Program-made: the position numbers and the translations under genes
Source: Alphaproteobacteria bacterium
Lineage (GTDB): Bacteria; Pseudomonadota; Alphaproteobacteria; RF32; CAG-239
DNA: 64,000 nucleotides
Assembly: GCA_017464685.1 (NCBI GenBank)
Contig: JAFTYO010000004.1
Location: 1,306 to 65,305, forward strand
Reading direction: 5' to 3'
Shown: piece after piece, positions 30,657 to 43,414 of the stretch
How positions within the stretch are numbered: position 1 is the first letter of the stretch
Layout: every line of letters starts with the position of its first letter
The notes under the pieces: model-generated
Told to the model about the DNA's origin: nothing
The model's input: the letters and a program-made list of their open reading frames with translations, nothing else
Databases searched by the model: none

Positions 30657-31934
30657 ATGTATAGAATAATCGGAAATATGACAGGAAATTCTATGGATGC
30701 CATTGACTTGGTGCTAACTGAGTTTGATGGTAATAAAATGACCGATCTCTACACCTTTTCTCGTCCATACACAAAAAATATGCAGAACCGCATCGAAAAG
30801 TTACGCACTCAAGTTTTTAATAAAACTTCAAATGAAATTGAAACCTTGCCGGAATTTTTAGATATACATAACGATTACATCAAACAAATTGCTGATTGTA
30901 TCAATGAGATGTGTCTGATAAATGGCATAGATAAATCAACTGTTGATGCAATTGGTTTTCATGGAAAAACACTTGACCATAATCCGCCATCTAAGGCCAA
31001 AACAGATAACACCGAGCCATATACTTTACAAATAGGTTCGGGACAAATGTTAGCCGACTTAACAGACATTGATGTTGTTTACGACTTTCGTTCGGATCCG
31101 GTAATGAATGATTTTGATGGAGCACCGTTGGTGCCAGTTCACAATGCACATATTTGTTGTTCTCAAGGAGATGGCATTTACTATAATGGAGGAAATACTT
31201 CCAATTTTGCCATAATCATCAATGGTAAAGCAATATTAGGAACAGATTCCGGACCATTTAATGAATATACGGATAATTATATTCGTATGCTATCTGATTA
31301 CAGTTTTGATAAAGATGGAATTTTTGGGCAAAATGGAAAATTAGATATACCATTATTGCAAAAAATTTTTCAATACGGGCGTTCTTTTTATGAAGCACCA
31401 TTACCAAAATCCGGAGATCCGGCATATTATCATAAAGATAAAATTTTTCAATATGTACAGCTTAACAGAATTAAATTTGAAGATGCTGTACATACTTTTG
31501 AATATGCAGCAGCATATATTGCTGCGCAAGCCTTAACTTTAATACCTGATAACATTGATATACCTAATCAATTCGTTTTGTTCGGAGGAGGTTGGAAAAA
31601 CCCTATTGTGCGTAAAAGTTTTGATAATATATTGTCAGGTAACGGTTTAATTTTATCGGAACATCAAGAAATTTTTACCAAATTGTGTTCAAGATTAAAA
31701 AATAATCTTCTAATAAAACAATCAAAATTTTCAGATTATATGGAAGCCCGCTTATTTGCTGATTTAGCACGATATAAATTAGAAAACAGAGCTTGGGAAA
31801 TTCCTGAAATTATTAATGCCGGCAAAAAAATTGTTTGCGGGGTCATCGCCAAACCACAAAACACCAATGGGAAATATAGCGATTATATTAATCGTGCAGC
31901 AAAAGGATGGCAAGACAAAACAACATTAAAATAA
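30657..31934 (+). CDS. anmK: Anhydro-N-acetylmuramic acid kinase
   Basis: N-terminal IGNMTGNSMDAIDLVL matches the AnmK pattern G.MSGTS.DG.D. Also FHGKTL.H, the GGN pocket and C-terminal GGG.KN. The ATG at 30657 is preceded by gagg. Confidence 0.82.
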   Translation: MYRIIGNMTGNSMDAIDLVLTEFDGNKMTDLYTFSRPYTKNMQNRIEKLRTQVFNKTSNEIETLPEFLDIHNDYIKQIADCINEMCLINGIDKSTVDAIGFHGKTLDHNPPSKAKTDNTEPYTLQIGSGQMLADLTDIDVVYDFRSDPVMNDFDGAPLVPVHNAHICCSQGDGIYYNGGNTSNFAIIINGKAILGTDSGPFNEYTDNYIRMLSDYSFDKDGIFGQNGKLDIPLLQKIFQYGRSFYEAPLPKSGDPAYYHKDKIFQYVQLNRIKFEDAVHTFEYAAAYIAAQALTLIPDNIDIPNQFVLFGGGWKNPIVRKSFDNILSGNGLILSEHQEIFTKLCSRLKNNLLIKQSKFSDYMEARLFADLARYKLENRAWEIPEIINAGKKIVCGVIAKPQNTNGKYSDYINRAAKGWQDKTTLK

Positions 31935-31960
31935 ATAATTTACATATACGAGAAATAAAA

Positions 31961-32773
31961 ATGGCAACAATTCATTTAATAGTAGGATTTATCGGGTTTG
32001 GCAAAACAACCATTGCAAAACAACTGGAACAAGAGTTATCAGCCGTACGTTTCACTCATGATGAAATTATGGTTAATCGCTATGGATCCAATCCGACCAA
32101 TTTTGAAACAAAATATGACATTGTTGACAACTATATAAAAAAACAAACTAAGCATCATATAGCTAAGAACATAGATGTTATCCTCGATTATGGTTTTTGG
32201 AATGATACAAAACGCCAAGAATATTATAATTGGGCAAAAAATTTAACTGAAAATGTAGTATTTCATGTTGTTGAATGTGATTTAATTGAAGCAAAACAAC
32301 GAACTTTAGAACGTACTAAAAAAGATAAAAACTCTCTTTTTGTTGATGAAGTCATATTTGACTCTCTTTTACAGCATTATCAACCATGGAGTTTGAATGA
32401 TAATTATCCGGTTGTTTTTCATAATGCTCCACCCCAAAAATATATAGGAAACCTTGTTCAAGTTAAAGTTGATCGACCTAAAGGCAGTAAACACCCCAAA
32501 TATGGTTTTGAATATCCGGTAAATTACGGATATGTGCCATTTACAAAATCGGGGGATGGTGAAGAATTAGATGCTTATGTTTTGGTGGAAAACAAACCTT
32601 TACAAAATTATGTCGGTCGATGTATCGGAGTTGTACATCGCTTAAATGACGATGATGACAAACTGATTGTTGTCCCTGAATCATTTGACTTAGACGATGA
32701 AGATATTGAAGCAAATATTGAGTTTCAAGAAAAATGGTTTGAGCATATTCTTATCAGAGATTCTGATATTTAA
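31961..32773 (+). CDS. Fusion protein: N-terminal P-loop kinase (AAA_33/zeta-like NTPase fold) plus C-terminal short family-I inorganic pyrophosphatase-like domain
   Basis: Walker A VGFIGFGKTTIAKQL with D..(F/W) downstream. The C-terminal VDRPKGSKHPKYGFEYPVNYGYVPFT..GDGEELDAYVL....GVVHRLNDDDDKLIVVP parallels the PPase motifs YP.NYGFIP.T...DGDP.D.LVL and D..G.D.K..AV. Confidence 0.65.
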   Translation: MATIHLIVGFIGFGKTTIAKQLEQELSAVRFTHDEIMVNRYGSNPTNFETKYDIVDNYIKKQTKHHIAKNIDVILDYGFWNDTKRQEYYNWAKNLTENVVFHVVECDLIEAKQRTLERTKKDKNSLFVDEVIFDSLLQHYQPWSLNDNYPVVFHNAPPQKYIGNLVQVKVDRPKGSKHPKYGFEYPVNYGYVPFTKSGDGEELDAYVLVENKPLQNYVGRCIGVVHRLNDDDDKLIVVPESFDLDDEDIEANIEFQEKWFEHILIRDSDI

Positions 32774-32854
32774 TATTTTGTTTTAATTATTTAATTTGTT
32801 TTTTTATAAAGAGACATAACCGGAATAAATTTTTTAATATTTTCACTACATTCC

Positions 32855-32990
32855 ACCTCAAATTTGATTTAAATTCACATTAAGACTCTTTTTACTTGCA
32901 AAAAAAAAAAACGGTTTAAGATACGACCTGAGAGGTAAGTTTTTGACCTTTCAAATTAAGTTTAACTATTTTTATAAAGGATTTAAAATT
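32855..32990 (+). promoter_or_regulatory. Conserved promoter + 5' UTR element, copy A (repeat of 41428-41565)
   Basis: The 68-nt core 32855-32922 matches 41428-41495 at 66 of 68 positions. It contains TTGCAA, an A12-containing spacer and TAAGAT (TATGAT in copy B). The UTR stem-loop is t-gagagg (32929-32935) paired with cctttc-a (32947-32953). The leader and RBS (aaaggatttaaaattATG) are also similar. Confidence 0.6.
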
Positions 32991-33446
32991 ATGAGAAAAT
33001 ATTTTCTTCTTACTGCTACGGCTCTTTTGAGCGCAACAAATGTTATGGCTGAAAGCAATGCTTATTCAGAATTATCTGTTAACGCTACCATTGCACATGC
33101 TAATGAAATTACATGTTCTGATGTAAATTTTGGCACTATTTATTTAAAAGCTAATCATGGTGATTTAGTTGTCGATTTAGTCGATGATCTTGTGTTAGAA
33201 TCTAACAGTAGCGATTATGTAAGCTCAACTGACACAGCATCAGCTTACTGTGAGTTAAATGAAGATTCTGAGATGCTTTTTTCATCTGAAACTGTAACAC
33301 TGAGCGCCGAAGGAGAATCAAAAGTTTTAACATTCAAACCTGAACAATGGTCTAGATCATCTATTAATGGAACTTTATCTATTCCTGCCGGTGTAACTCC
33401 AACAAGTTATACAGGTTCATTTGAGGTAACATTCCTTAACCTATAA
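32991..33446 (+). CDS. Small secreted beta-sandwich protein, DUF4402/spore-coat-U (SCPU)-like, paralog A
   Basis: Signal peptide MRKYFLLTATALLSATNVMA followed by ES. It has ITC..(V)NFG.I near the N-terminus, a second conserved Cys, and the C-terminal G.L.I......SYTGSFEVTF pattern typical of that family. The start is trimmed from the track ORF (32943) to the ATG with an RBS. Confidence 0.65.
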   Translation: MRKYFLLTATALLSATNVMAESNAYSELSVNATIAHANEITCSDVNFGTIYLKANHGDLVVDLVDDLVLESNSSDYVSSTDTASAYCELNEDSEMLFSSETVTLSAEGESKVLTFKPEQWSRSSINGTLSIPAGVTPTSYTGSFEVTFLNL

Positions 33447-33450
33447 ACTT

Positions 33451-33485
33451 AATACCGCCTCCTTTAAAGGAGGCGGTATTTTTGT
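33451..33485. terminator. Rho-independent terminator (30-nt perfect palindrome), shares its stem with the terminator at 42118
   Basis: aataccgcctccttt/aaaggaggcggtatt followed by a T run, between the convergent paralog A and fabZ. Confidence 0.8.
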
Positions 33486-33488
33486 TTC

Positions 33489-33941
33489 TTACTGATTTAT
33501 AATCATTGCGGAAAATTCGGCTTCGGATACAACTTGTCCATCAACCGTACATTGTCCCTTAAACACATATATATTGCGGCGCTCTTTGATTTTTTCAACA
33601 TGCATACGAAGTTGGTCGCCCGGTTTTACCGGCTTTCTGAACTTTACGCCATCAACCGACATAAACAATACACCTACTTTTTTATTAGCATAATCTTCAT
33701 CTTTTGCGGTTACGATAGCACCTGCCGTTTGAGCCATTGCCTCAATTTGCAACACACCGGGCATTACCGGATTGTTCGGAAAGTGTCCTTGAAAAAATTC
33801 TTCATTCATGGTTACATTTTTTATACCCACACCTTTTTCACCTGCGACCTCAACTTCCAATCTGTCAATGAGTAAAAACGGATAACGATGAGGTAACAAT
33901 TTTAATATTTCTTCAATCGGATATACTTTAATTTCTGACAT
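33489..33941 (-). CDS. fabZ: 3-hydroxyacyl-ACP dehydratase FabZ
   Basis: LPHRYPFLLIDR, FF.GHFP..PVMPGVL.IEAMAQ, F.G...VDG. Confidence 0.95.
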   Translation of the reverse strand: MSEIKVYPIEEILKLLPHRYPFLLIDRLEVEVAGEKGVGIKNVTMNEEFFQGHFPNNPVMPGVLQIEAMAQTAGAIVTAKDEDYANKKVGVLFMSVDGVKFRKPVKPGDQLRMHVEKIKERRNIYVFKGQCTVDGQVVSEAEFSAMIINQ

Positions 33942-33966
33942 ATTTTTTTCCTTCTTTTAATATTAA

Positions 33967-34980
33967 TTATTTTTTACTGTTTCTTTGTAAAAACGATACT
34001 TGGCGCATAAAATCTTTAAACGGTACTGCCGGTGTTCCCATAACAACCGTTTGAGCTTCAACATCACGCATAATGCCCGATTGCGCACCGATTTGAGCTC
34101 CACTGCCAACCGTTAAATGGTCGGCAAATCCGGTCTGTCCGCCACAAACAACATAATCACCGAATGTACAACTTCCGGCAATTCCGGTTTGTGAAACAAT
34201 GATACACCCCCTGCCCATTTTATCATTATGTGCAATTTGTACCAAGTTATCAATACGGCAACCGTCACCGATTATGGTATCATCTAATGCCCCTCGGTCA
34301 ATACAACTGTTTGCGCCGACTTCAACATCATTACCGATAATAAGTCTTCCTACTTGCGGTATGCGAATATGTTTACCTCCAATAGTGTTAAAGCCAAAAC
34401 CGTCCGCACCGAGTTTGGCACCGGCATAAATATAACAATCGTTACCCATAATGGTATAAGTCACATATGCACCGACACCGATACGGCAATTATTACCGAT
34501 TTTACAACCTTTTCCGATATAACAATTTGCTTCCAATCGGCAATTATCCCCTATAAGCGCATCATCTTCTATCACAACATTGGCACCGATATAACAATTT
34601 TGCCCGACTTTTGCGGTTTTAGCAATTGTGGCGCTTTCATGAACCATATTTTCAGGAACATATTCGGCATACATTGCCTGATTTAATTTTAAAAATGCAA
34701 GTTTCGGATTGTCAACAACCAAAACACTTATCCCGTAGGGAATCCAACTTTGCAAATCCTGATTGGTAACACAAGCCTTTGCTTTAATATTTACCGCTTT
34801 TTCTTTTGCCTTTCTGTCATAGAAAAAACAAATTTCATTACTGCCGGCTTTTTCCATCGTGGCAATATCATAAATTTTATCTTTCGGATTACACGAATCT
34901 GTAAACTCTGCACCAATTATTTTTGCAATTTGCTCTAGTGTAAACGGTCCGTTGTTTTTAAAAAATGCAGTATCAACCAT
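33967..34980 (-). CDS. lpxD: UDP-3-O-acylglucosamine N-acyltransferase
   Basis: N-terminal LpxD domain followed by many hexapeptide (left-handed beta-helix) repeats and the HN catalytic context (QIAHND). Sits between bamA and fabZ. Confidence 0.93.
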
Positions 34981-34994
34981 ATATTTTCTCCTTA

Positions 34995-37256
34995 TTACAA
35001 ACTTGTACCAAAGTTAAGACGAAATACTTCTTTTTGGTCGTAGTCTTCTTTTACAATCGGGAAACCGAAATCGATATCAATTTTTCCCATCGGTGAATAC
35101 CATTCAAATCCGAAACCGACCGAAACTCTCGGTTTTGAAGAATATTCAACATATTTTGAATCTATATCATCAGGTTTGCCGATAACACCGGCATCAACAA
35201 AGGTACGACCCCTGATACCAAGTTCATCAAGCCCTAACGGGAACATCAATTCGGCACCACCATAAATAACCCAATTTCCACCTAAGGCATCATCCGTATA
35301 TATATCTCTTGCACCAACTCCGCTATATTCAAAACCACGAAGTGTATTTCCGCCTAAATAATAGCGCTTGGATAAACGAACATCTTCATCACCATAACTG
35401 GTAACATATCCGCCGTTGATGTGGGTTTTTAATGTCCAATAGTCATTAAAAGTAACAAATTTATATGCTTTAACATCAAATTTGAAATATTTTTCATCAC
35501 CGCCAAGACCCGAAATATCATTGCCGAATGACAAATAATATCCGTCTTTTGTTCTCAAAGCATTGTCACGTTTATCGTACACTAATGTTTGTCCGATAAC
35601 AGAATCTGTGCTTTTGCCCTCTTCTCTTTTAATATATATTGAAGCAAAATCTTTAACATCTTTAATTTCATCACGACTTAATGTATACCGAACAGTTTGA
35701 TATAAATTATCAGTGTAATTCCAACCTAAACGAATTCTGCCACCGACACTTGCACTGTCATATGAGCTTTCATCTTGATAACTTTCATCATTGTAAAAAA
35801 CATCAGCTCCGGCACTTAACCGCCTGCCCAAAAAGTATGGCTCGGTAAAACTCATTGAATAATCTTTTGAACGCTCGGATACACTTGCATCAACACTAAG
35901 CCTTTGCCCTTTACCCATAAAATTATTTTCGGTTACACCTGCTTGTACCAAAGCTCCGTTTACGGTAGAATATCCGATGCCCACATTAAAATATCCCGTT
36001 GATTTTTCTTCAACTTCAACATTAATATCCGCTTTTGAATTATCCAAAGGTACCGGATTAATTTCAACCTTACTGAAATAATTTAAGTTTTCAATATTAC
36101 GTCTGGAATCACCAATCTTTGATACATTAAAAGCATCACCTTCATCTAGTCGAAACTCTCTTCTGATTACTTCATCAAGTGTTCTGGTATTGCCCATAAT
36201 ATTAATACGATTTACAAAAGTTCTTTCACCCTCTAATATATCAAAAACAATTTCCATCTTATTATTCTGCATATCTTTATTAAATTTGGGCACAACATCT
36301 ACAAACACAAAACCTTTTTTTCCCAACTCTTCAGTAATGCGTGAGACAGAATTTTCAATTTTATTTGCATTATACCAATCTCCTTTAGAGAAAGTAACAT
36401 AATTTAAAAAGTCTTCTGTTTTAATTTCTTTAATTGCCGAGTTTATTTTAATATCACTAATTTCATATCTCGGTCCTTCATCTAAAGAAAAATTCAAAAT
36501 AAACGACTTTTTATTCGGCGCTAATTCTGCAATTGCAGATATAACCTGAAAATCGGCATAACCATGCTCGGTATAAAAACGGCGCAAAAGTTCTTTATCA
36601 TAATTCATTTTCTCAGCATCATATGTTTCTGAACTGGAAAAAATTCTATACCAACGGCTTTCTTTACTCATAATTTCTTCTTGTAAATCAGAGGAAGAAT
36701 AATGCGTATTTCCTAAAAAATTGATTTTATCAATTTTAGCTGCTGGCCCTTCATCAATTTCAAAAATTAAATCAACACGATTATCATCTCGCTCAATCAA
36801 CTTAGGTTCAACTTCAACCGAATAGCGACCTGAACGTTTATATATTTCTAAAATTCGTTGAACATCTTGTTGAACTTTTGCTTTACTGTATAATGAGTTT
36901 GGCACACTTTGAACTTCATCTTCCAAAATTTTATCATCAAGTTTTTTGTTGCCGTCAAAGGCCCTTTGACCAATAACCGGATTTTCTTCCAATTTAACAA
37001 GCAACACCCCACCTGACTTATTTTCCATCTGGATATCTGAAAACAGTCCGGTAGCATACAAATTTTTCAAAGCTCCATCTAGTTTACTTTGCGTAACATT
37101 ATGTCCTTTTTTAAGTCCCAAATACGCCAAAACAGTTTCTTCTTCAACTCGTTTAAGTCCTTCAATTTCTATATTGCCGATATAATAGTTTGCAGCCAAA
37201 ACATCTGAAATTGCAAATCCGACCATCAATATAGATACAAACAACGCTTTTTTCAT
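34995..37256 (-). CDS. bamA: Outer membrane protein assembly factor BamA
   Basis: Signal peptide, five POTRA-like repeats (I..I.IEG..RV....), and a C-terminal Omp85 barrel ending ...FRLNFGTSL. Confidence 0.95.
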
Positions 37257-37274
37257 CTTTAATTTCCTTATTTT

Positions 37275-38411
37275 TTAAGAATTAAACCAACGATTGAATA
37301 AATGTACAATATCATTATAAGTAGCAAAAACCATCAATGCGAGTAACAACGCAAATCCGGCACGAAACAAATAATCTTTTACTTTTTCATTAAGTTCACG
37401 TCCTGTAACAATTTCAATAGTATAAAAAACAACATGACCACCATCTAAAACCGGTATCGGAAATAAATTTATTAAGCCCAAATTCACTGACAACAATGCC
37501 ATAAACACTATAAAATTTAAGATACTGTGACTTTTTGAAATATCACCTGTCATCTCAGCAATACGAATAATACCTCCGATATCATCGCTTCCTCTGTCGC
37601 CTTTTATCATTTGTGCAACACCACGCAAAGTGGTGGCGGTAACATCATATACCTCCTCAACGGCATAGACAAATGCCTTGTGTAGCGGTGTTTTTTCATC
37701 TGATGTTTCAATCTCGCTAATCGATTTTACACCAAGCATATGTCTTTTTTCTTTTGTTCCATTGGCATCATCTGTTTCAATTTCGGTTAAAAGAATGTCA
37801 AAATTTAACACATCTTCACCACGTTTAACTTCAATTTTGGTCTTATAATCAGCTGCCATAGAAACTTCACGGGCTATATCGGCAAATTCTTCTATTTTTA
37901 CACCATTTATGCTTAATATCCTATCACCTTTTTCAATACCGGCATCATAAGCAGCGCTGTTTTCTAGAACTTCACCAACAATCGGTGGAAAAGTGATTTT
38001 TCCCAAACAAGCAAACAGACAAGTGTAAATCAAAACTGCAAACAAATAGTTGAAACCAGGACCAGCCAACACTATTGCAAGTTTTTTATAAGGACTCTGA
38101 AATGCAAAAGCTCTTTTTTTCTGTTCATCGGTAAGTTTTGATATATCAGATGTGGAAGATGAAGCTTCCTCATCTCCCAGAAATTGACAATATCCACCCA
38201 AGGGAATAGCAGATATTTTCCAAACTGTACCTTTTTTATCTGTTCTAGACCATATAACTTTGCCGAATCCTATTGAAAATGCACTAACCTCCACACCTGA
38301 AATTCTGGCAACGATAAAATGACCAAATTCATGTACAAACACTAATATTCCAAGTAAAATTATAAACGGAATTATATAGTGCACTATATTGAAAATAATT
38401 TCCATATTCAA
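37275..38411 (-). CDS. rseP: RIP site-2 metalloprotease RseP
   Basis: HEFGHF zinc motif in TM1, a central PDZ domain (AA..AGI..GD.IL.ING) and NLFPIP.LDGGH in the C-terminal TM. Confidence 0.93.
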   Translation of the reverse strand: MNMEIIFNIVHYIIPFIILLGILVFVHEFGHFIVARISGVEVSAFSIGFGKVIWSRTDKKGTVWKISAIPLGGYCQFLGDEEASSSTSDISKLTDEQKKRAFAFQSPYKKLAIVLAGPGFNYLFAVLIYTCLFACLGKITFPPIVGEVLENSAAYDAGIEKGDRILSINGVKIEEFADIAREVSMAADYKTKIEVKRGEDVLNFDILLTEIETDDANGTKEKRHMLGVKSISEIETSDEKTPLHKAFVYAVEEVYDVTATTLRGVAQMIKGDRGSDDIGGIIRIAEMTGDISKSHSILNFIVFMALLSVNLGLINLFPIPVLDGGHVVFYTIEIVTGRELNEKVKDYLFRAGFALLLALMVFATYNDIVHLFNRWFNS

Positions 38412-38427
38412 AAACCACCTTTATCTT

Positions 38428-39270
38428 TTATAAACCATATGCAAATAACCAATACACAAACGGAGCTGCAAAAATTAAGCCATCAACTCTGTCGAAAACA
38501 CCGCCATGCCCCGGAATTAAAGAACTTGAGTCTTTAACTCCCAATTTACGTTTAATTGCCGATTCGATCAAATCACCAATCTGAGAAACCGCTGCAATAA
38601 TACCACCTAACACAACAAAAAATGTCTGTGTATTATTATCTATTTTAATTACAGAAAACTCAGCTAAAATCCAAATGTATATATAACTTGCAGCCATTGC
38701 AAAAACAATTCCGCCAATTAAACCGGACCATGTTTTATTAGGACTGATTTTAGGAGCAAGTTTTGGTCCCTTTACATTGCAACCTACAATAAAACCACCT
38801 ATATCCATTGCCCAAACCATTATAAAAAACCACAGTGTCATATAAAAATTATACGGATGATGAACTAACACACCATGATAAATCCACAACAAAGATCCAA
38901 CGCCGATTGAAATGTATGAAACACCCAATGTCAACAAATTACGATGTTCTTCACTCTTTGCCTTAAACCATACAAAAAAACTTACCAAAACAATTGTTGA
39001 TATAATCATTGGGGTATCATACACAAACAGTGAAACAGCAAGCGATGTTATATATGCAGCCAAATATGTCGAAGATGACTTGCTGGGCATCATATTCGAC
39101 CATTCCCAAGCCAGAAGAACACCAACTATAAGTGCCAACACATCAACAAAAGGATACCCTCCCCATAATGCCCCTATTGCAACCGGTAACATCACTAACG
39201 CTGTCAAAATTCTTTTTGCCAACGAACCAAATTTTTTGGCTGTTTTCTTTTTTGTTTTAGGCCTTGCCAT
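38428..39270 (-). CDS. cdsA: Phosphatidate cytidylyltransferase
   Basis: Polytopic protein with the C-terminal signature S..KR..GVKDSS.LIPGHGGV.DR.D. The start is trimmed to the ATG at 39270 (MARPKTKKK). The track ORF extends 34 codons into uppS. Confidence 0.9.
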   Translation of the reverse strand: MARPKTKKKTAKKFGSLAKRILTALVMLPVAIGALWGGYPFVDVLALIVGVLLAWEWSNMMPSKSSSTYLAAYITSLAVSLFVYDTPMIISTIVLVSFFVWFKAKSEEHRNLLTLGVSYISIGVGSLLWIYHGVLVHHPYNFYMTLWFFIMVWAMDIGGFIVGCNVKGPKLAPKISPNKTWSGLIGGIVFAMAASYIYIWILAEFSVIKIDNNTQTFFVVLGGIIAAVSQIGDLIESAIKRKLGVKDSSSLIPGHGGVFDRVDGLIFAAPFVYWLFAYGL

Positions 39271-39961
39271 ATCTTCTCTCCCTTGTTTTAAAATTTTCAA
39301 CAATATTAATAAGTTCTTTTTCCGTAAAATCCGGCCATAACGTATTTGTAAAAAACAACTCCGAATACGCAATCTGCCACAATAAATAATTACTTATTCT
39401 TTGTTCTCCACTTGTGCGAATAACTAAATCAGGATCTGGAATATCTGAGGTGTACAAAAGCTTTGAAAACATATTTTCATTTATATCCTCTGGCATAATA
39501 TCGCCTTTAGCAACAAGCTCCGCTGCTTTTTTTGCCGCATGAACAATTTCTTGACGAGAGCCATAACTTAAGGCAACCTGCAAAGTCATGCCTTTATTCT
39601 TTCGAGTTTCTTGTTCTAAAGCATCCATTTTTGCCACAATATCTGCATCAAGCATATACTTTTCACCGATAAAAATTATGCGAATATCATTTTTTTTCAG
39701 GTCTTCAAAATTTTTATCCAAATATTCTCTCAACAAATTCATCAAGCCTGAAATTTCTTCATCACTTCGCTTCCAGTTTTCGGTTGAAAAAGCATAAACC
39801 GTTAAATATTTCACTCCTGTGTTTTTAGCCGCTTTTGCAATTTCAAGTAAGGTTTGAGCCCCTTTTTTATGCCCTGCATTACGGACAAGGCCTTGTTTTT
39901 TTGCCCACCTACCGTTACCATCCATAATTATGGCAATATGTTCCAAAGTTTTATCAGCCAC
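39257..39961 (-). CDS. uppS: Undecaprenyl diphosphate synthase
   Basis: HIAIIMDGNGRWA, YAFSTENW.R, IRTSGE.R.SN.LLWQ.AY.E. Confidence 0.95.
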   Translation of the reverse strand: MADKTLEHIAIIMDGNGRWAKKQGLVRNAGHKKGAQTLLEIAKAAKNTGVKYLTVYAFSTENWKRSDEEISGLMNLLREYLDKNFEDLKKNDIRIIFIGEKYMLDADIVAKMDALEQETRKNKGMTLQVALSYGSRQEIVHAAKKAAELVAKGDIMPEDINENMFSKLLYTSDIPDPDLVIRTSGEQRISNYLLWQIAYSELFFTNTLWPDFTEKELINIVENFKTRERRYGKA

Positions 39962-39972
39962 TGCACAAAACC

Positions 39973-40536
39973 CTAAACTTGCATAATATCTTTTTCTTTT
40001 TGAGCCTGCAAATCATCAACTTTTTTAACAGCATCATCTGTAATTTTTTGAATATCAGTTTCAGCCTTTTTTTCTTCATCCTCCGAAATTAAATTATCTT
40101 TTTTAAGTTTTTTAACCTCATCAAGGGCATCACGACGAATGTTTCTGATTGCAACTTTGTTTTGTTCGGCATATTTACCGGCAACTCTTACAAGCTCTTT
40201 TCTGCGTTCTTCACTAAGTGGCGGTATAGGTACCCTGATTAACGTTCCATCCGACACCGGATTTAATCCTAAATCGCTTTCTCTTAAAGCCTTTTCAACA
40301 CTTTTTGCAATCGACTTATCCCAAACACTAACCGACAGTGTTCTGGCATCAGGGACACTAACCGTTCCGACCTGAGAAATCGGAGTTAAAGAGCCATATG
40401 CTTCAACCATAATACCATCAAGCAAGCTTGCATGAGCACGACCTGCACGCAACCCGCCGAAATCAACCTTTAACGATTCCAAAGTTTTATCCATACGAGT
40501 TCTCGCATCATTTTTAATATTGTTAATATCAGACAT
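39973..40536 (-). CDS. frr: Ribosome recycling factor
   Basis: 187 aa with RTGRA-like GLRAGRA, P.TEERRKELVK-like PPLSEERRKELVR, and RNIRRDA. Confidence 0.95.
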   Translation of the reverse strand: MSDINNIKNDARTRMDKTLESLKVDFGGLRAGRAHASLLDGIMVEAYGSLTPISQVGTVSVPDARTLSVSVWDKSIAKSVEKALRESDLGLNPVSDGTLIRVPIPPLSEERRKELVRVAGKYAEQNKVAIRNIRRDALDEVKKLKKDNLISEDEEKKAETDIQKITDDAVKKVDDLQAQKEKDIMQV

Positions 40537-40537
40537 T

Positions 40538-41257
40538 TTAACCTCTATTTTTAATTACTGTAAATTTTCCTTTAGCACATACGGCATCTACTATTGAATT
40601 TTCTGATTGTTGTGAAAACACCACAATTGAAATATTATTTTCTTGAGCCATTGTTATGGCTGTTAAATCCATGACCCTAAGTTGTTTTTGCACAACTTCT
40701 TCAAAAGATATTTCATCAAAACGTTTAGCCATAGAATTTGTCTTCGGATCAGAATCATACACCCCATCAACCTGAGTAGACTTTAATATGGCATCGCAAC
40801 CCATTTCACAAGCACGCAATGCAGCTCCGGTATCTGTTGTAAAATACGGATTTCCGGTACCTCCGGCAAAAATTATGACCTTGCCATCACCAAGGTTTTT
40901 TATAGCCCTGCGATATATATACGTTTCACACACCTGAGGTATTCTCAAACCTGACATAACAACAACTCTCAAACCTTGCTTTTGTAAAGCATCTTGCAAA
41001 AACATAGCATTCATAACTGTTGCCATCATACCGATTTGATCAGCAACACTTCTGTTCATACCGGATGCCGCTTCCTTAGCTCCTCTAAAAATATTGCCTC
41101 CACCTATAACTAAACATACACCAACTCCCATACTATGTATAGATTTAATTTGTTTAGCAATATTTAGAACAATATTACCATCCACACCGAAAGACTTATC
41201 ACCCATAAGACCTTCGCCGGATAATTTTATTAAAACTCTTCTATAAGCAGGTTGCAT
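40538..41257 (-). CDS. pyrH: UMP kinase
   Basis: YRRVLIKLSGE, VIGGGNIFRG, FAGGTGNPYFTTDT, VDGVY.DP. The start is trimmed to the ATG at 41257, which has an aaggtg RBS. Confidence 0.93.
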   Translation of the reverse strand: MQPAYRRVLIKLSGEGLMGDKSFGVDGNIVLNIAKQIKSIHSMGVGVCLVIGGGNIFRGAKEAASGMNRSVADQIGMMATVMNAMFLQDALQKQGLRVVVMSGLRIPQVCETYIYRRAIKNLGDGKVIIFAGGTGNPYFTTDTGAALRACEMGCDAILKSTQVDGVYDSDPKTNSMAKRFDEISFEEVVQKQLRVMDLTAITMAQENNISIVVFSQQSENSIVDAVCAKGKFTVIKNRG

Positions 41258-41427
41258 AAAAACACCTTTCCATTTTGTTTTTTCCATATTAACGACTTTA
41301 TAGCAATTGTCACACCATTTTTCCACGATGTTAACAATTTATAAACATTAATTGTTTTTTATAAATTTTTTCACGCTTTAAAATAACTGCATATCGATTT
41401 ATCAACAATATATTATATTTTCATTTT

Positions 41428-41565
41428 ACCTCAAATTTGATTTAAATCCACATTAAGACTCTTTTTACTTGCAAAAAAAAAAAACGGTTTATGATGTGAT
41501 GTAAGAGGTCAAAATTGCCCTCTTAAAACTTAAAGTTAAACTGTTTTTAATAAGGATTAAAAATT
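41428..41565 (+). promoter_or_regulatory. Conserved promoter + 5' UTR element, copy B (repeat of 32855-32990)
   Basis: Core 41428-41495, containing TTGCAA, a spacer and TATGAT. The UTR stem-loop is t-aagagg (41502-41508) paired with cctctt-a (41519-41525). The leader is taaggattaaaaattATG. Confidence 0.6.
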
Positions 41566-42051
41566 ATGAGAACATATTTTCTTCTTGGTGCTGTGGCAAT
41601 GTTAATGACAACCACCGCCAACGCAACAAATCCGATAGCGGCAGGTGCTTTTCTAGCACAAGCGGCAATTGTTATGGCGGATTCTATAACTTGTAATGAA
41701 GATTTAACTATGGTGGCTGTTACAGATGATTCAAAATCAATTAATGTAACTATTAATCCTGACGGAAGTATTGAACGCAGTGCTCATCTTATACATATAG
41801 AAGGCACACCGGCCAAATGCACAATATCAAATGGAGTATTTACAAATATAGACAATTTTTCTGTTTCTCAAGAAACTGTTGTTTTTGAACCATCTTCTGA
41901 ATCTGATACGGCTCCAACTCTTTCAGATTTTACTTTTGCAATTGCTAATGATGGAACATCAGTATCTATCGGAGGCAATTTCTACATAGACAGTCCAACA
42001 TCATCAAGCACCTACACTTCTATTGTTTCTGTTATGTATTCATATGAATAA
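41566..42051 (+). CDS. Small secreted beta-sandwich protein, DUF4402/SCPU-like, paralog B
   Basis: Signal peptide MRTYFLLGAVAMLMTTTANA. The ITC motif and second Cys are conserved with paralog A. The C-terminus reads IGGNFYI....SSTYTSIVSVMY. Confidence 0.65.
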   Translation: MRTYFLLGAVAMLMTTTANATNPIAAGAFLAQAAIVMADSITCNEDLTMVAVTDDSKSINVTINPDGSIERSAHLIHIEGTPAKCTISNGVFTNIDNFSVSQETVVFEPSSESDTAPTLSDFTFAIANDGTSVSIGGNFYIDSPTSSSTYTSIVSVMYSYE

Positions 42052-42117
42052 TCTTGAAACTAAAAAATCGTATAAAATAACTTACCGTAACTTATTCTTA
42101 CTAATTCATCAAAATTT

Positions 42118-42145
42118 TACCGCCTCGTTAGAGGCGGTATTTTTA
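42118..42145. terminator. Rho-independent terminator sharing its stem sequence with 33451-33485
   Basis: taccgcctc-gtta-gaggcggta followed by T5, between the convergent paralog B and clpX. Confidence 0.8.
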
Positions 42146-42160
42146 CATTACAAACAGCTT

Positions 42161-43414
42161 TTAAGCGCTTTTACTTTCGGTTGACCTCACCAAAATCGGC
42201 TCACCGTTTCCGTTGACTGCCTTATCGGTAATAACAACTTCGGTAACATCTTTTGTATCCGGAATTTGATACATCAAATCTAAAAGCAATCCTTCCATAA
42301 TTGCTCTCAAGCCACGAGCTCCCGTTTTGCGCTCAATCGCTTTTTTCGCAATAGCCCTTAAAGCCTCATCATTTACGGTCAGTTTTACATCTTCCATATC
42401 AAACAAGGTGGTATATTGTTTCAAAAGTGCGTTTTTAGGCTCGGTTAAAACCTTAATTAAAGCATCTTCGTCCAAATCATTTAATGTAGCAATAATCGGA
42501 AGTCGGCCGATAAACTCCGGAATTAAACCGAATTTTAGCAAATCTTCGGGCTGAACATCTTTTAAAATTTCGCCGATTCCCCTATCTTCTTTTGAGGCAA
42601 CTTTAGCGCCAAACCCGATAGATGTATCTTTTCCTCTTGAACTGACAATTTTTTCCAGACCGGCAAAAGCACCTCCGCAAATAAACAAAATATTTGATGT
42701 ATCAACATGCAAAAATTCTTGCTGAGGGTGTTTTCTGCCACCTTGCGGCGGAACATTGGCAATGGTACCCTCAATGATTTTTAACAAAGCTTGTTGAACA
42801 CCCTCACCCGAAACATCTCGTGTAATTGACGGGCCATCGGTTTTTCTGGTGATTTTATCAATTTCATCAATATAAACAATACCTCTTTCGGCTTTTTCAA
42901 TATCATAATTTGCCGCTTGTACCAATTTTAAGATAATATTTTCAACATCTTCACCGACATATCCGGCTTCAGTTAAAGTTGTGGCATCGGCAATGGCAAA
43001 CGGAACATCTAAAATTTTTGCCAAAGTTTGCGCAAGCAAAGTTTTGCCCGAACCGGTTGAACCGATTAAGATGACATTAGATTTTGAAACATCAACATCT
43101 TTGTTATCTTTTTTGCAATTAAGTCTTTTATAGTGGTTATAAACCGAAACGGAAAGCACTTTTTTAGCTAAATCCTGCCCGATAACATATTGGTCAAGAA
43201 ACTCTTTGATTTTTGAAGGTGTCGGCAGATTTTCCGAAAAACTTCCGGTTTCTGATTGTTTTTCGTTATGAAGTTCATCCGATACAATATTGATACAAAC
43301 ATCAATACATTCATCACAAATATAAACACCTCGACCGGCAACAAGTTTTTTTACTTCATTTTGACTTTTGCCGCAAAAAGAACAATGTAAAACTTCATCT
43401 TTAGTATCACTCAT
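42161..43414 (-). CDS. clpX: ATP-dependent Clp protease ATP-binding subunit ClpX
   Basis: N-terminal zinc finger CSFCGK...C..C, Walker A GSTGSGKT, Walker [10 protein letters not shown], and GARGLR sensor. Confidence 0.97.

Follow-up and report, generated by a model that had tools for sequence, protein, structure and literature searches.

In Bordetella, the fimBCD genes encode a chaperone, an usher and a tip adhesin, and the major subunit genes fim2, fim3, fimX and fimN are unlinked to them; the fim promoters have in common a 'fim box' together with a homopolymeric C-stretch, and transcription is influenced by how long this stretch is (PMC4447244, PMC1891110). The archaic (sigma) pili, among them Csu of Acinetobacter and CupE of Pseudomonas, have SCPU-domain subunits (PMC4654587, PMC9452303, PMC10104325). 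Here we describe a 64,000-nucleotide (nt) stretch of DNA, referred to below as the window, from an uncultured gut alphaproteobacterium (GenBank contig JAFTYO010000004.1, positions 1,306–65,305), which carries two members, open reading frames (ORFs) A and B, of a large gene family. The closest known arrangement appears to be that of fim2, fim3 and fimX with fimBCD. We consider it about 65% probable that the family genes encode interchangeable major pilin subunits for the single chaperone-usher machine of this genome, in which case the uncharacterized Pfam domain DUF4402 would acquire a concrete function that can be tested, as the domain from which the subunits of a chaperone-usher pilus are built.

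The source genome (G000) comprises 1.38 Mb in 52 contigs and is 85% complete, with the window on contig C25; genomes of this host are 1.4–1.6 Mb in size. Comparisons were made within a panel of 41 genomes that includes the source genome and a sister species of the same genus, Alphaproteobacteria bacterium isolate SIG55 (G003).

A DUF4402 family and a chaperone-usher operon

Both ORFs encode a signal peptide with predicted cleavage after residue 20 (VMA in ORF A, ANA in ORF B), a donor-strand-like segment (residues 28–36 and 29–37, respectively), an ITC motif (residues 40–42 and 41–43), two cysteines (Cys42 and Cys87; Cys43 and Cys85) and a C-terminal strand (SYTGSFEVTF and TYTSIVSVMY). Apart from the donor-strand-like segment, these features, and the sizes and starts of the ORFs (Table 1), are as reported in a preliminary description made from the sequence alone. 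That description also noted an L.FG.I motif, which ORF A (VNFGTI) and the family consensus have and ORF B lacks, and called the remainder of the two proteins poorly alignable, which agrees with a BLASTP alignment confined to residues 1–45 (40% identity, as against ~24% for the remainder).

The family extends far beyond these two copies. An iterative hidden Markov model (HMM) search of the source genome returned 46 ORFs, 41 of them full length, starting MRKYF, and ORF A scores 151 bits on the family profile. Altogether, the source genome has at least 41 intact family genes and ~50 in all, and the sister species has at least 104. By sequence inspection, the family signal peptide consists of MRK, a hydrophobic core and an A-x-A site, which reads ANA|T in 78 of 145 proteins and VMA|E in ORF A. 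Among 142 proteins from the two species, the residues at positions −14, −12, −10, −8 and −6 from the first cysteine are hydrophobic in 100, 99, 94, 100 and 79% of cases, whereas the positions in between are hydrophobic in 4–13%. To judge from this pattern, the N-terminal segment of the mature proteins may form a donor-strand-like amphipathic strand. Exactly two cysteines are present in 36 of 41 proteins of the source genome and 91 of 104 of the sister species, with a median spacing of 45, and the pair resembles the disulfide of FimA and PapA. The proteins lack both a lipobox cysteine and internal repeats and are not lipoproteins.

At the level of the family, the DUF4402 assignment holds. PF14352, for which the gathering cut-off over the whole domain is 25.2 bits, is matched by 33 of the 41 paralogs at E ≤ 1 (best E 1.4e-9), and a six-frame search of the source genome gave 39 matches (best, 89 bits), of which 21 exceed the cut-off, three of them only when summed with in-frame neighbors. 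ORF B scores 24.6 bits with hmmscan and 25.5 bits in the six-frame search, over profile positions 3–129 of 129, and ORF A alone scores 18.7 bits, which is under the cut-off. The other half of the earlier suggestion, a likeness to SCPU (spore-coat-U) pilins, did not survive: PF05229 was not matched by ORF A or ORF B at E ≤ 10, nor by any of the 41 paralogs at E ≤ 1, and there was no Csu or CupE chain in the top 50 PDB matches to a model of ORF B, and we therefore rejected SCPU membership. No family member has an HMM match to Pfam Fimbrial, and a search of NCBIfam gave no match to ORF A or ORF B. The ORF B model, made with AlphaFold2 (AF2) on the paralog alignment, is all-beta, with a predicted local distance difference test (pLDDT) score of 85.4 and an unpacked N-terminal segment. 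In a Foldseek search of the PDB, its highest-probability matches were usher-assembled proteins, Caf1 (probability 0.85; template-modeling (TM) scores 0.44/0.51) and FimA (0.60), at E values of 0.12–0.6 and TM scores of 0.3–0.5.

The preliminary description correctly stated that no usher or chaperone gene is adjacent to the two ORFs in the window, but was misled by this absence, because a chaperone-usher operon is located on another contig. On contig C18, three overlapping genes encode a 317-amino-acid (aa) protein with two DUF4402 domains (106 bits), a 266-aa chaperone (PapD_N, 29.8 bits against a cut-off of 23; weak match to the fimbrial chaperone TcfA, E 4e-7) and a 947-aa outer-membrane protein. 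The sole Pfam match of the 947-aa protein is a C-terminal CarboxypepD_reg domain. It has no Pfam Usher match of its own, but four of 35 homologs match Usher (PF00577), and its AF2 model (pLDDT 78.6) aligns with the FimD and PapC ushers over 690–920 columns (E 9e-29 to 2e-24); neither the usher nor the chaperone gave anything useful when searched against PDB sequences. The usher of the proposed DUF4402 pilus would thus be one that is too divergent for the Pfam model. The chaperone is the only one of its kind in the source genome, a genome search having found no second one, and the operon, the only chaperone-usher operon there, contains no single-domain subunit gene.

The distribution of ushers and family genes among the 41 genomes links the two. 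A full-length usher is present in seven genomes (G000, G001, G003, G004, G011, G016 and G019), and all seven have family matches; of the 34 genomes without a full-length usher, one (G015) has a family match, which is single and weak. In G004, G011 and G019, single-domain DUF4402 genes adjoin the usher. A large expansion is found only in the source genome and its sister species.

The family proteins are DUF4402 beta-sandwich proteins with a predicted Sec export signal. If they are pilins, they would be polymerized as major subunits, presumably by donor-strand exchange, by the machine encoded on C18, with the two-domain DUF4402 protein as a tip-like component. The conserved parts of the family would be those that have to match in all subunits, namely promoter, leader, signal peptide, donor strand, cysteine pair and the C-terminal strand, which may provide the acceptor edge, and the exposed body would be free to vary. 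Such variation could serve variable adhesion or the evasion of antibody or phage.

Several observations weigh against an assignment as pilins. Taken singly, ORF A is under the Pfam cut-off and ORF B is borderline, the best Foldseek E value for the ORF B model against the PDB (0.12) is not significant, and a PDB sequence search with the family profile gave no useful match. In the source genome, the family genes are unlinked to the chaperone-usher operon, and an N-terminal amphipathic strand and a cysteine pair are not unique to pilins. A literature search on 'DUF4402' found no papers in the library searched, so the label 'pilin' rests on context, and none of the RNA runs searched holds the locus. 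ORF B falls in a divergent sub-clade in which the FG motif is missing, and its role could be a different one, for example that of a minor subunit. It is also conceivable, though in our estimation unlikely, that the family consists of secreted or outer-membrane beta-sandwich antigens that do not polymerize, such as type II secretion cargo or surface decoys, and that co-occurrence with the usher reflects only a shared DUF4402 ancestry. The lack of a significant structural match to a pilin and of linkage to the machine would fit such antigens, as would the finding that the same promoter core drives other exported proteins (prepilin-like proteins and a Cys-rich 229-aa protein). However, usher and family are tightly correlated in presence and absence, single-domain DUF4402 genes lie beside the usher in relatives, the machine operon of the source genome lacks a major subunit gene and the donor-strand-like alternation is kept in 142 proteins, all of which argue against non-polymerizing antigens.

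Promoter modules, leaders and terminators

The features of the two loci are collected in Table 1.

Table 1. Features of the ORF A and ORF B loci (window positions)
Feature	Coordinates	Strand	Description
Copy A promoter module	32855–32922	+	Direct repeat, also seen in the pairwise alignment, >50 recurrences in the genome; putative promoter; upstream box ACCTCAAATTTGATTTAAAT, GACTCTTTTTACTTGC, A12 tract (32900–32911), −10-like TAAGAT (32917–32922)
Copy A 5′ untranslated region hairpin	32929–32953	+	TGAGAGGT paired with ACCTTTCA
Copy A Shine-Dalgarno-like site	32976–32981	+	AAAGGA, 9 nt before ATG; kept in family alignment
ORF A	32991–33446	+	151 aa; MRKYFLL start; DUF4402-family, pilin-like; signal peptide
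Copy A terminator hairpin	33453–33478	.	TACCGCCTCC-TTTAAA-GGAGGCGGTA and T run; between convergent ORF A and fabZ
Copy B promoter module	41428–41495	+	Upstream box, GACTCTTTTTACTTGC, A12 tract (41473–41484), −10-like TATGAT (41490–41495)
Copy B 5′ untranslated region hairpin	41502–41525	+	TAAGAGG paired with CCTCTTA
Copy B Shine-Dalgarno-like site	41552–41556	+	AAGGA
ORF B	41566–42051	+	161 aa; MRTYFLL start; DUF4402-family, pilin-like; signal peptide
Copy B terminator hairpin	42118–42139	.	TACCGCCTC-GTTA-GAGGCGGTA and T run; between convergent ORF B and clpX; terminator call on both strands

The ~140 nt upstream of the two start codons are 82–86% identical, the strongest signal at the two loci and one that the preliminary description overlooked, and include a near-identical 70-nt core, ACCTCAAATTTGATTTAAAT..GACTCTTTTTACTTGC(A)12CGGTTTA(A/T)GAT, which is followed by the leader hairpin and the Shine-Dalgarno site. 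In the source genome the module has >50 BLAST matches, many of them at contig ends. It breaks assembly: in four metagenome DNA runs from a single study (X1–X4), assembled contigs break inside the repeat, and word depth is 270–1165 on the module versus 8–20 on its flanks. Conservation across the family starts abruptly ~140 nt before the ATG and extends through the signal peptide. Because the module recurs and this 5′ block is conserved, we regard the family genes as genome-wide, self-contained expression units, each of which would be complete from promoter to terminator. The preliminary description of a cassette-like promoter and leader around a divergent body at two loci thus applies to the family as a whole. 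As a practical matter, the 140-nt module could serve as a probe with which to recover the complete set of family genes from metagenomes.

A large number of copies that diverge but have conserved ends would also be expected of silent donor cassettes supplying one expression site, the arrangement of Neisseria pilS/pilE and Anaplasma msp2. However, none of the copies lacks a promoter module, a Shine-Dalgarno site, an ATG, a signal peptide, an intact frame or a terminator, and fragments are few. Since all copies are complete expression units, we rejected this model (pilE/pilS, msp2, vlsE), which we regard as very improbable.

Between a −35-like TTGCAA and a −10-like TATGAT, an A6–A14 tract is present in 130 units, an assignment as promoter made by consensus only. 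An A12 tract makes the spacer 15 nt long, and for this reason a sigma-70 consensus scan calls no promoter. The tract is 12 long in 24 of 34 units of the source genome (range, 6–14) and 80 of 96 units of the sister species (range, 8–13). At the two window loci, five independent assemblies extend across the tract, and all five show A12, although as contigs they hide minority lengths.

One possibility, compatible with a role as pilins, is that slippage in the A tract makes expression phase variable, with one or a few genes on at a time, which would produce antigenic variation of the kind linked to the Bordetella fim C-stretch or the Mycoplasma hyorhinis vlp poly(A). An unbroken A run lies between the two promoter elements of every unit, its length differs among paralogs, and in one of seven best-matching interspecies gene pairs (67–94% identical; six carry the tract) the lengths are A8 and A12. 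As the spacer is 15 nt with A12, shifts in length should alter promoter strength. Against this, the sharp peak at 12 looks like selection for one geometry, and the contigs from the five assemblies agree on A12; we consider slippage improbable as the means of control. A second possibility concerns the opposite mode of expression. Because the promoters are near-identical, with A12 geometry in 70–83% of units, most of the 50–100 genes may be co-expressed, and because there is one universal donor strand and acceptor edge, their products may co-polymerize on the single usher into mosaic pili with a surface made up of dozens of different subunits, with slot-wise replacement of cassettes renewing the repertoire. 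We hold this, too, to be doubtful. To our knowledge, a mosaic fiber would set this system apart from every known variable pilus, in which one subunit is used at a time; if it exists, it would be a 'polyclonal' fiber suited to broad adhesion or to the evasion of antibody or phage.

The leader hairpin is a second conserved element of the unit. A stem of at least 6 bp is present in 121 of 122 unique leaders from the two species (shuffled leaders: mean 61, maximum 75), and the copy B hairpin departs from the family consensus TGAAAGG/CCTTTCA by two double changes, both of them compensatory. A search of Rfam with window positions 32700–42300 found no family. In three of the four metagenome runs, the loop of the ORF B leader hairpin carries C>A at window position 41510.

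Two further observations concern the surroundings of the module. At least six family promoter modules are immediately preceded by a GC-rich structured element (..ACCGGTRTCTATTCCRARCTAAAGYTYGGGCACCGGTATGA..), with sites outside the window on contigs C3, C20 (two copies), C22 and C45 of the source genome and at loci L212 and L213; its inner hairpin covaries (CCGAACT/AGTTCGG vs CCAAGCT/AGCTTGG), and it has no match in Rfam. The promoter core, with A11–12, also precedes exported proteins that do not belong to the family (C18:11701–12360, C27, C28 and C13:6031, all outside the window), namely prepilin-like proteins starting MRKxCExGRSMVEMLG and the Cys-rich 229-aa protein. That the core is common to the family and to other exported proteins suggests a regulon of surface structures. 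Scans of JGI metagenomes for the clpX-side flank and the promoter core gave no matches.

Both terminator hairpins are present where they had been described and have the stem TACCGCCTC/GAGGCGGTA in common. The copy A hairpin is probably bidirectional, since ORF A and fabZ converge on it from either side. Of six CCGCCTC..GAGGCGG hairpins in the source genome, four are directly behind family genes and one is behind a family remnant; as five of the six are family-linked, we rejected a chance origin of the common stem. In 315 kb of the sister species there are 14 such hairpins, 13 of them behind family genes. Nevertheless, the idea that the terminator is part of every cassette had to be rejected, because the stem is present in only ~12% of family units and the others use unrelated terminators.

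Occupants of the two slots in a sister species

The sister species is closely related in its housekeeping genes (ClpX 99% and FabZ 95% identical) and has a family gene at both window slots, but the occupants are not orthologous to ORF A and ORF B; other genomes of the genus have no family gene there. The best match to ORF B in the sister species is 40% identical and located elsewhere, the best match to ORF A is 42% identical, and in a tree the occupants of each slot fall in different clades. Nucleotide identity between the two species is 93–100% through clpX and drops to ~40% at the terminator. At both slots the hairpin stems are identical in the two species and the loops differ. Only four of the 41 family genes have a counterpart at least 80% identical in the sister species, and four near-identical genes (74–91% nt identity) have different flanks in the two species. 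Because the same chromosomal slots hold unrelated members in sister species, the repertoire would turn over fast, which fits the earlier suggestion of a set of interchangeable variants. Fixed slots with unrelated occupants between flanks that are 93–100% identical offer a natural system for studying how a surface-protein repertoire is renewed.

How might the occupants be exchanged? The unit from promoter to terminator may be a recombining or mobile cassette, either through gene conversion via the ~170-nt 5′ module or through recombination at the ACCGCCTC hairpin, and this would be compatible with a role as pilins. The non-orthologous members at both slots, the break in homology at a hairpin with the same stems and different loops, and the near-identical genes in different flanks all point in this direction, as does the stem's almost exclusive position behind family genes. 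In addition, the closest paralog of ORF A, C3_58185 (76% identical), is part of a duplicated unit that spans exactly from the module start to the terminator. Finally, the rate of synonymous substitution (dS) is lower in the signal-peptide codons than in the mature part in 21 of 25 close paralog pairs, typically by a factor of 2–5, which is what conversion of the 5′ end should produce. However, the stem occurs in so few units, and at 9–12 bp it is too short for RecA-dependent exchange; no recombinase or target duplications were seen, and neither terminal inverted repeats nor a common left-end structure were found flanking the module. Ordinary homologous recombination through the housekeeping flanks, with allelic replacement, would explain the slot data equally well, and the low 5′ dS could stem from gene conversion or from constraint acting on the 5′ block at the RNA level. 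On balance we think a recombining or mobile cassette quite unlikely.

The preliminary description had also proposed diversifying selection, to which the substitution data lend little. Between ORF A and C3_58185, the ratio of nonsynonymous to synonymous substitution rates (dN/dS) is 0.14–0.17 at the ends and 0.49 in residues 55–97, with no stretch >1; for whole genes, dN/dS among paralogs is uninformative, as dS is saturated (0.7–2.5). The only hint comes from near-clonal assemblies of other samples, in which four of the six single-nucleotide polymorphisms in 5.45 kb are within ORF A and none within ORF B. All four (at 33238, 33244, 33304 and 33391; A83E, A85D, S105N and G134D) are nonsynonymous and three create acidic residues, a pattern that is suggestive of diversifying selection, although the numbers are small. 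In metagenome runs X1–X4, the ORF B coding sequence is identical.

Two other genes in the window were noted in passing. Upstream of ORF A, a 288-aa ORF (31907–32773, + strand) is, according to the Pfam annotation of the public contig, a fusion of an AAA_33/KTI12-like kinase and an inorganic pyrophosphatase. A 1038-aa ORF (48874–51990, − strand) has an internal duplication, with a DNA repeat (50204–50337 and 51752–51885; 81% identical) whose copies encode '..PMAAQNQN.ER..DDGHKIEM.VQE..NRDNA.TIDFYQA.S'.

Comparison with known systems

Like the archaic Csu and CupE pili, the proposed pilus would be built from small beta-sandwich subunits through a chaperone-usher pathway other than the classical one, but the family differs from them in lacking PF05229 in all 41 members and in having no Csu or CupE protein among the Foldseek matches listed. 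With FimA, PapA, Caf1 and the CFA/I class, the family proteins have in common a Sec signal, an N-terminal strand of alternating hydrophobicity, a cysteine pair near the start of the fold and a conserved C-terminal strand, and there is a two-domain tip-like protein. The PapD-like chaperone and the usher with a FimD/PapC fold likewise resemble those of classical and alternative chaperone-usher systems, from which the highest-probability fold matches, Caf1 and FimA, are drawn. Unlike classical pilins, the family proteins do not match Pfam Fimbrial, their fold matches are not significant and their genes are dispersed.

The vlp genes of Mycoplasma hyorhinis, like the similar vsp and vsa genes, are clustered lipoprotein genes with internal repeats and proven switching. 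Yogev et al. in 1991 and Citti and Wise in 1995 reportedly described their highly conserved 5′ region, their conserved signal peptide and a promoter that contains a poly(A) tract. The family described here resembles vlp in its near-identical block of promoter, leader and signal peptide, its promoter poly(A) and its divergent exposed body, but differs in that it is dispersed, does not encode lipoproteins, lacks internal repeats and has a tract that is nearly always 12 long.

The likeness to Bordetella fim, which we take to be the closest, has its limits. The subunits contain DUF4402 rather than Pfam Fimbrial, the usher is divergent, with a C-terminal CarboxypepD_reg domain and no Pfam Usher match of its own, and the genome, of 1.4–1.6 Mb, is that of an uncultured gut alphaproteobacterium. 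The homopolymeric tract is poly-A instead of poly-C, and any switching through its length would be hypothetical. The scale is also 10–30 times greater, with 41–104 genes instead of 3–5; by gene counts, ~3% of the genes in the source genome and ~7% of those in the sister species would encode alternative subunits of a pilus. What the two systems appear to share is their layout, in which one machine operon with a tip protein relies on scattered subunit genes, and these scattered genes carry a conserved promoter element that holds a homopolymeric tract and encode what would be alternative subunits of a single pilus.

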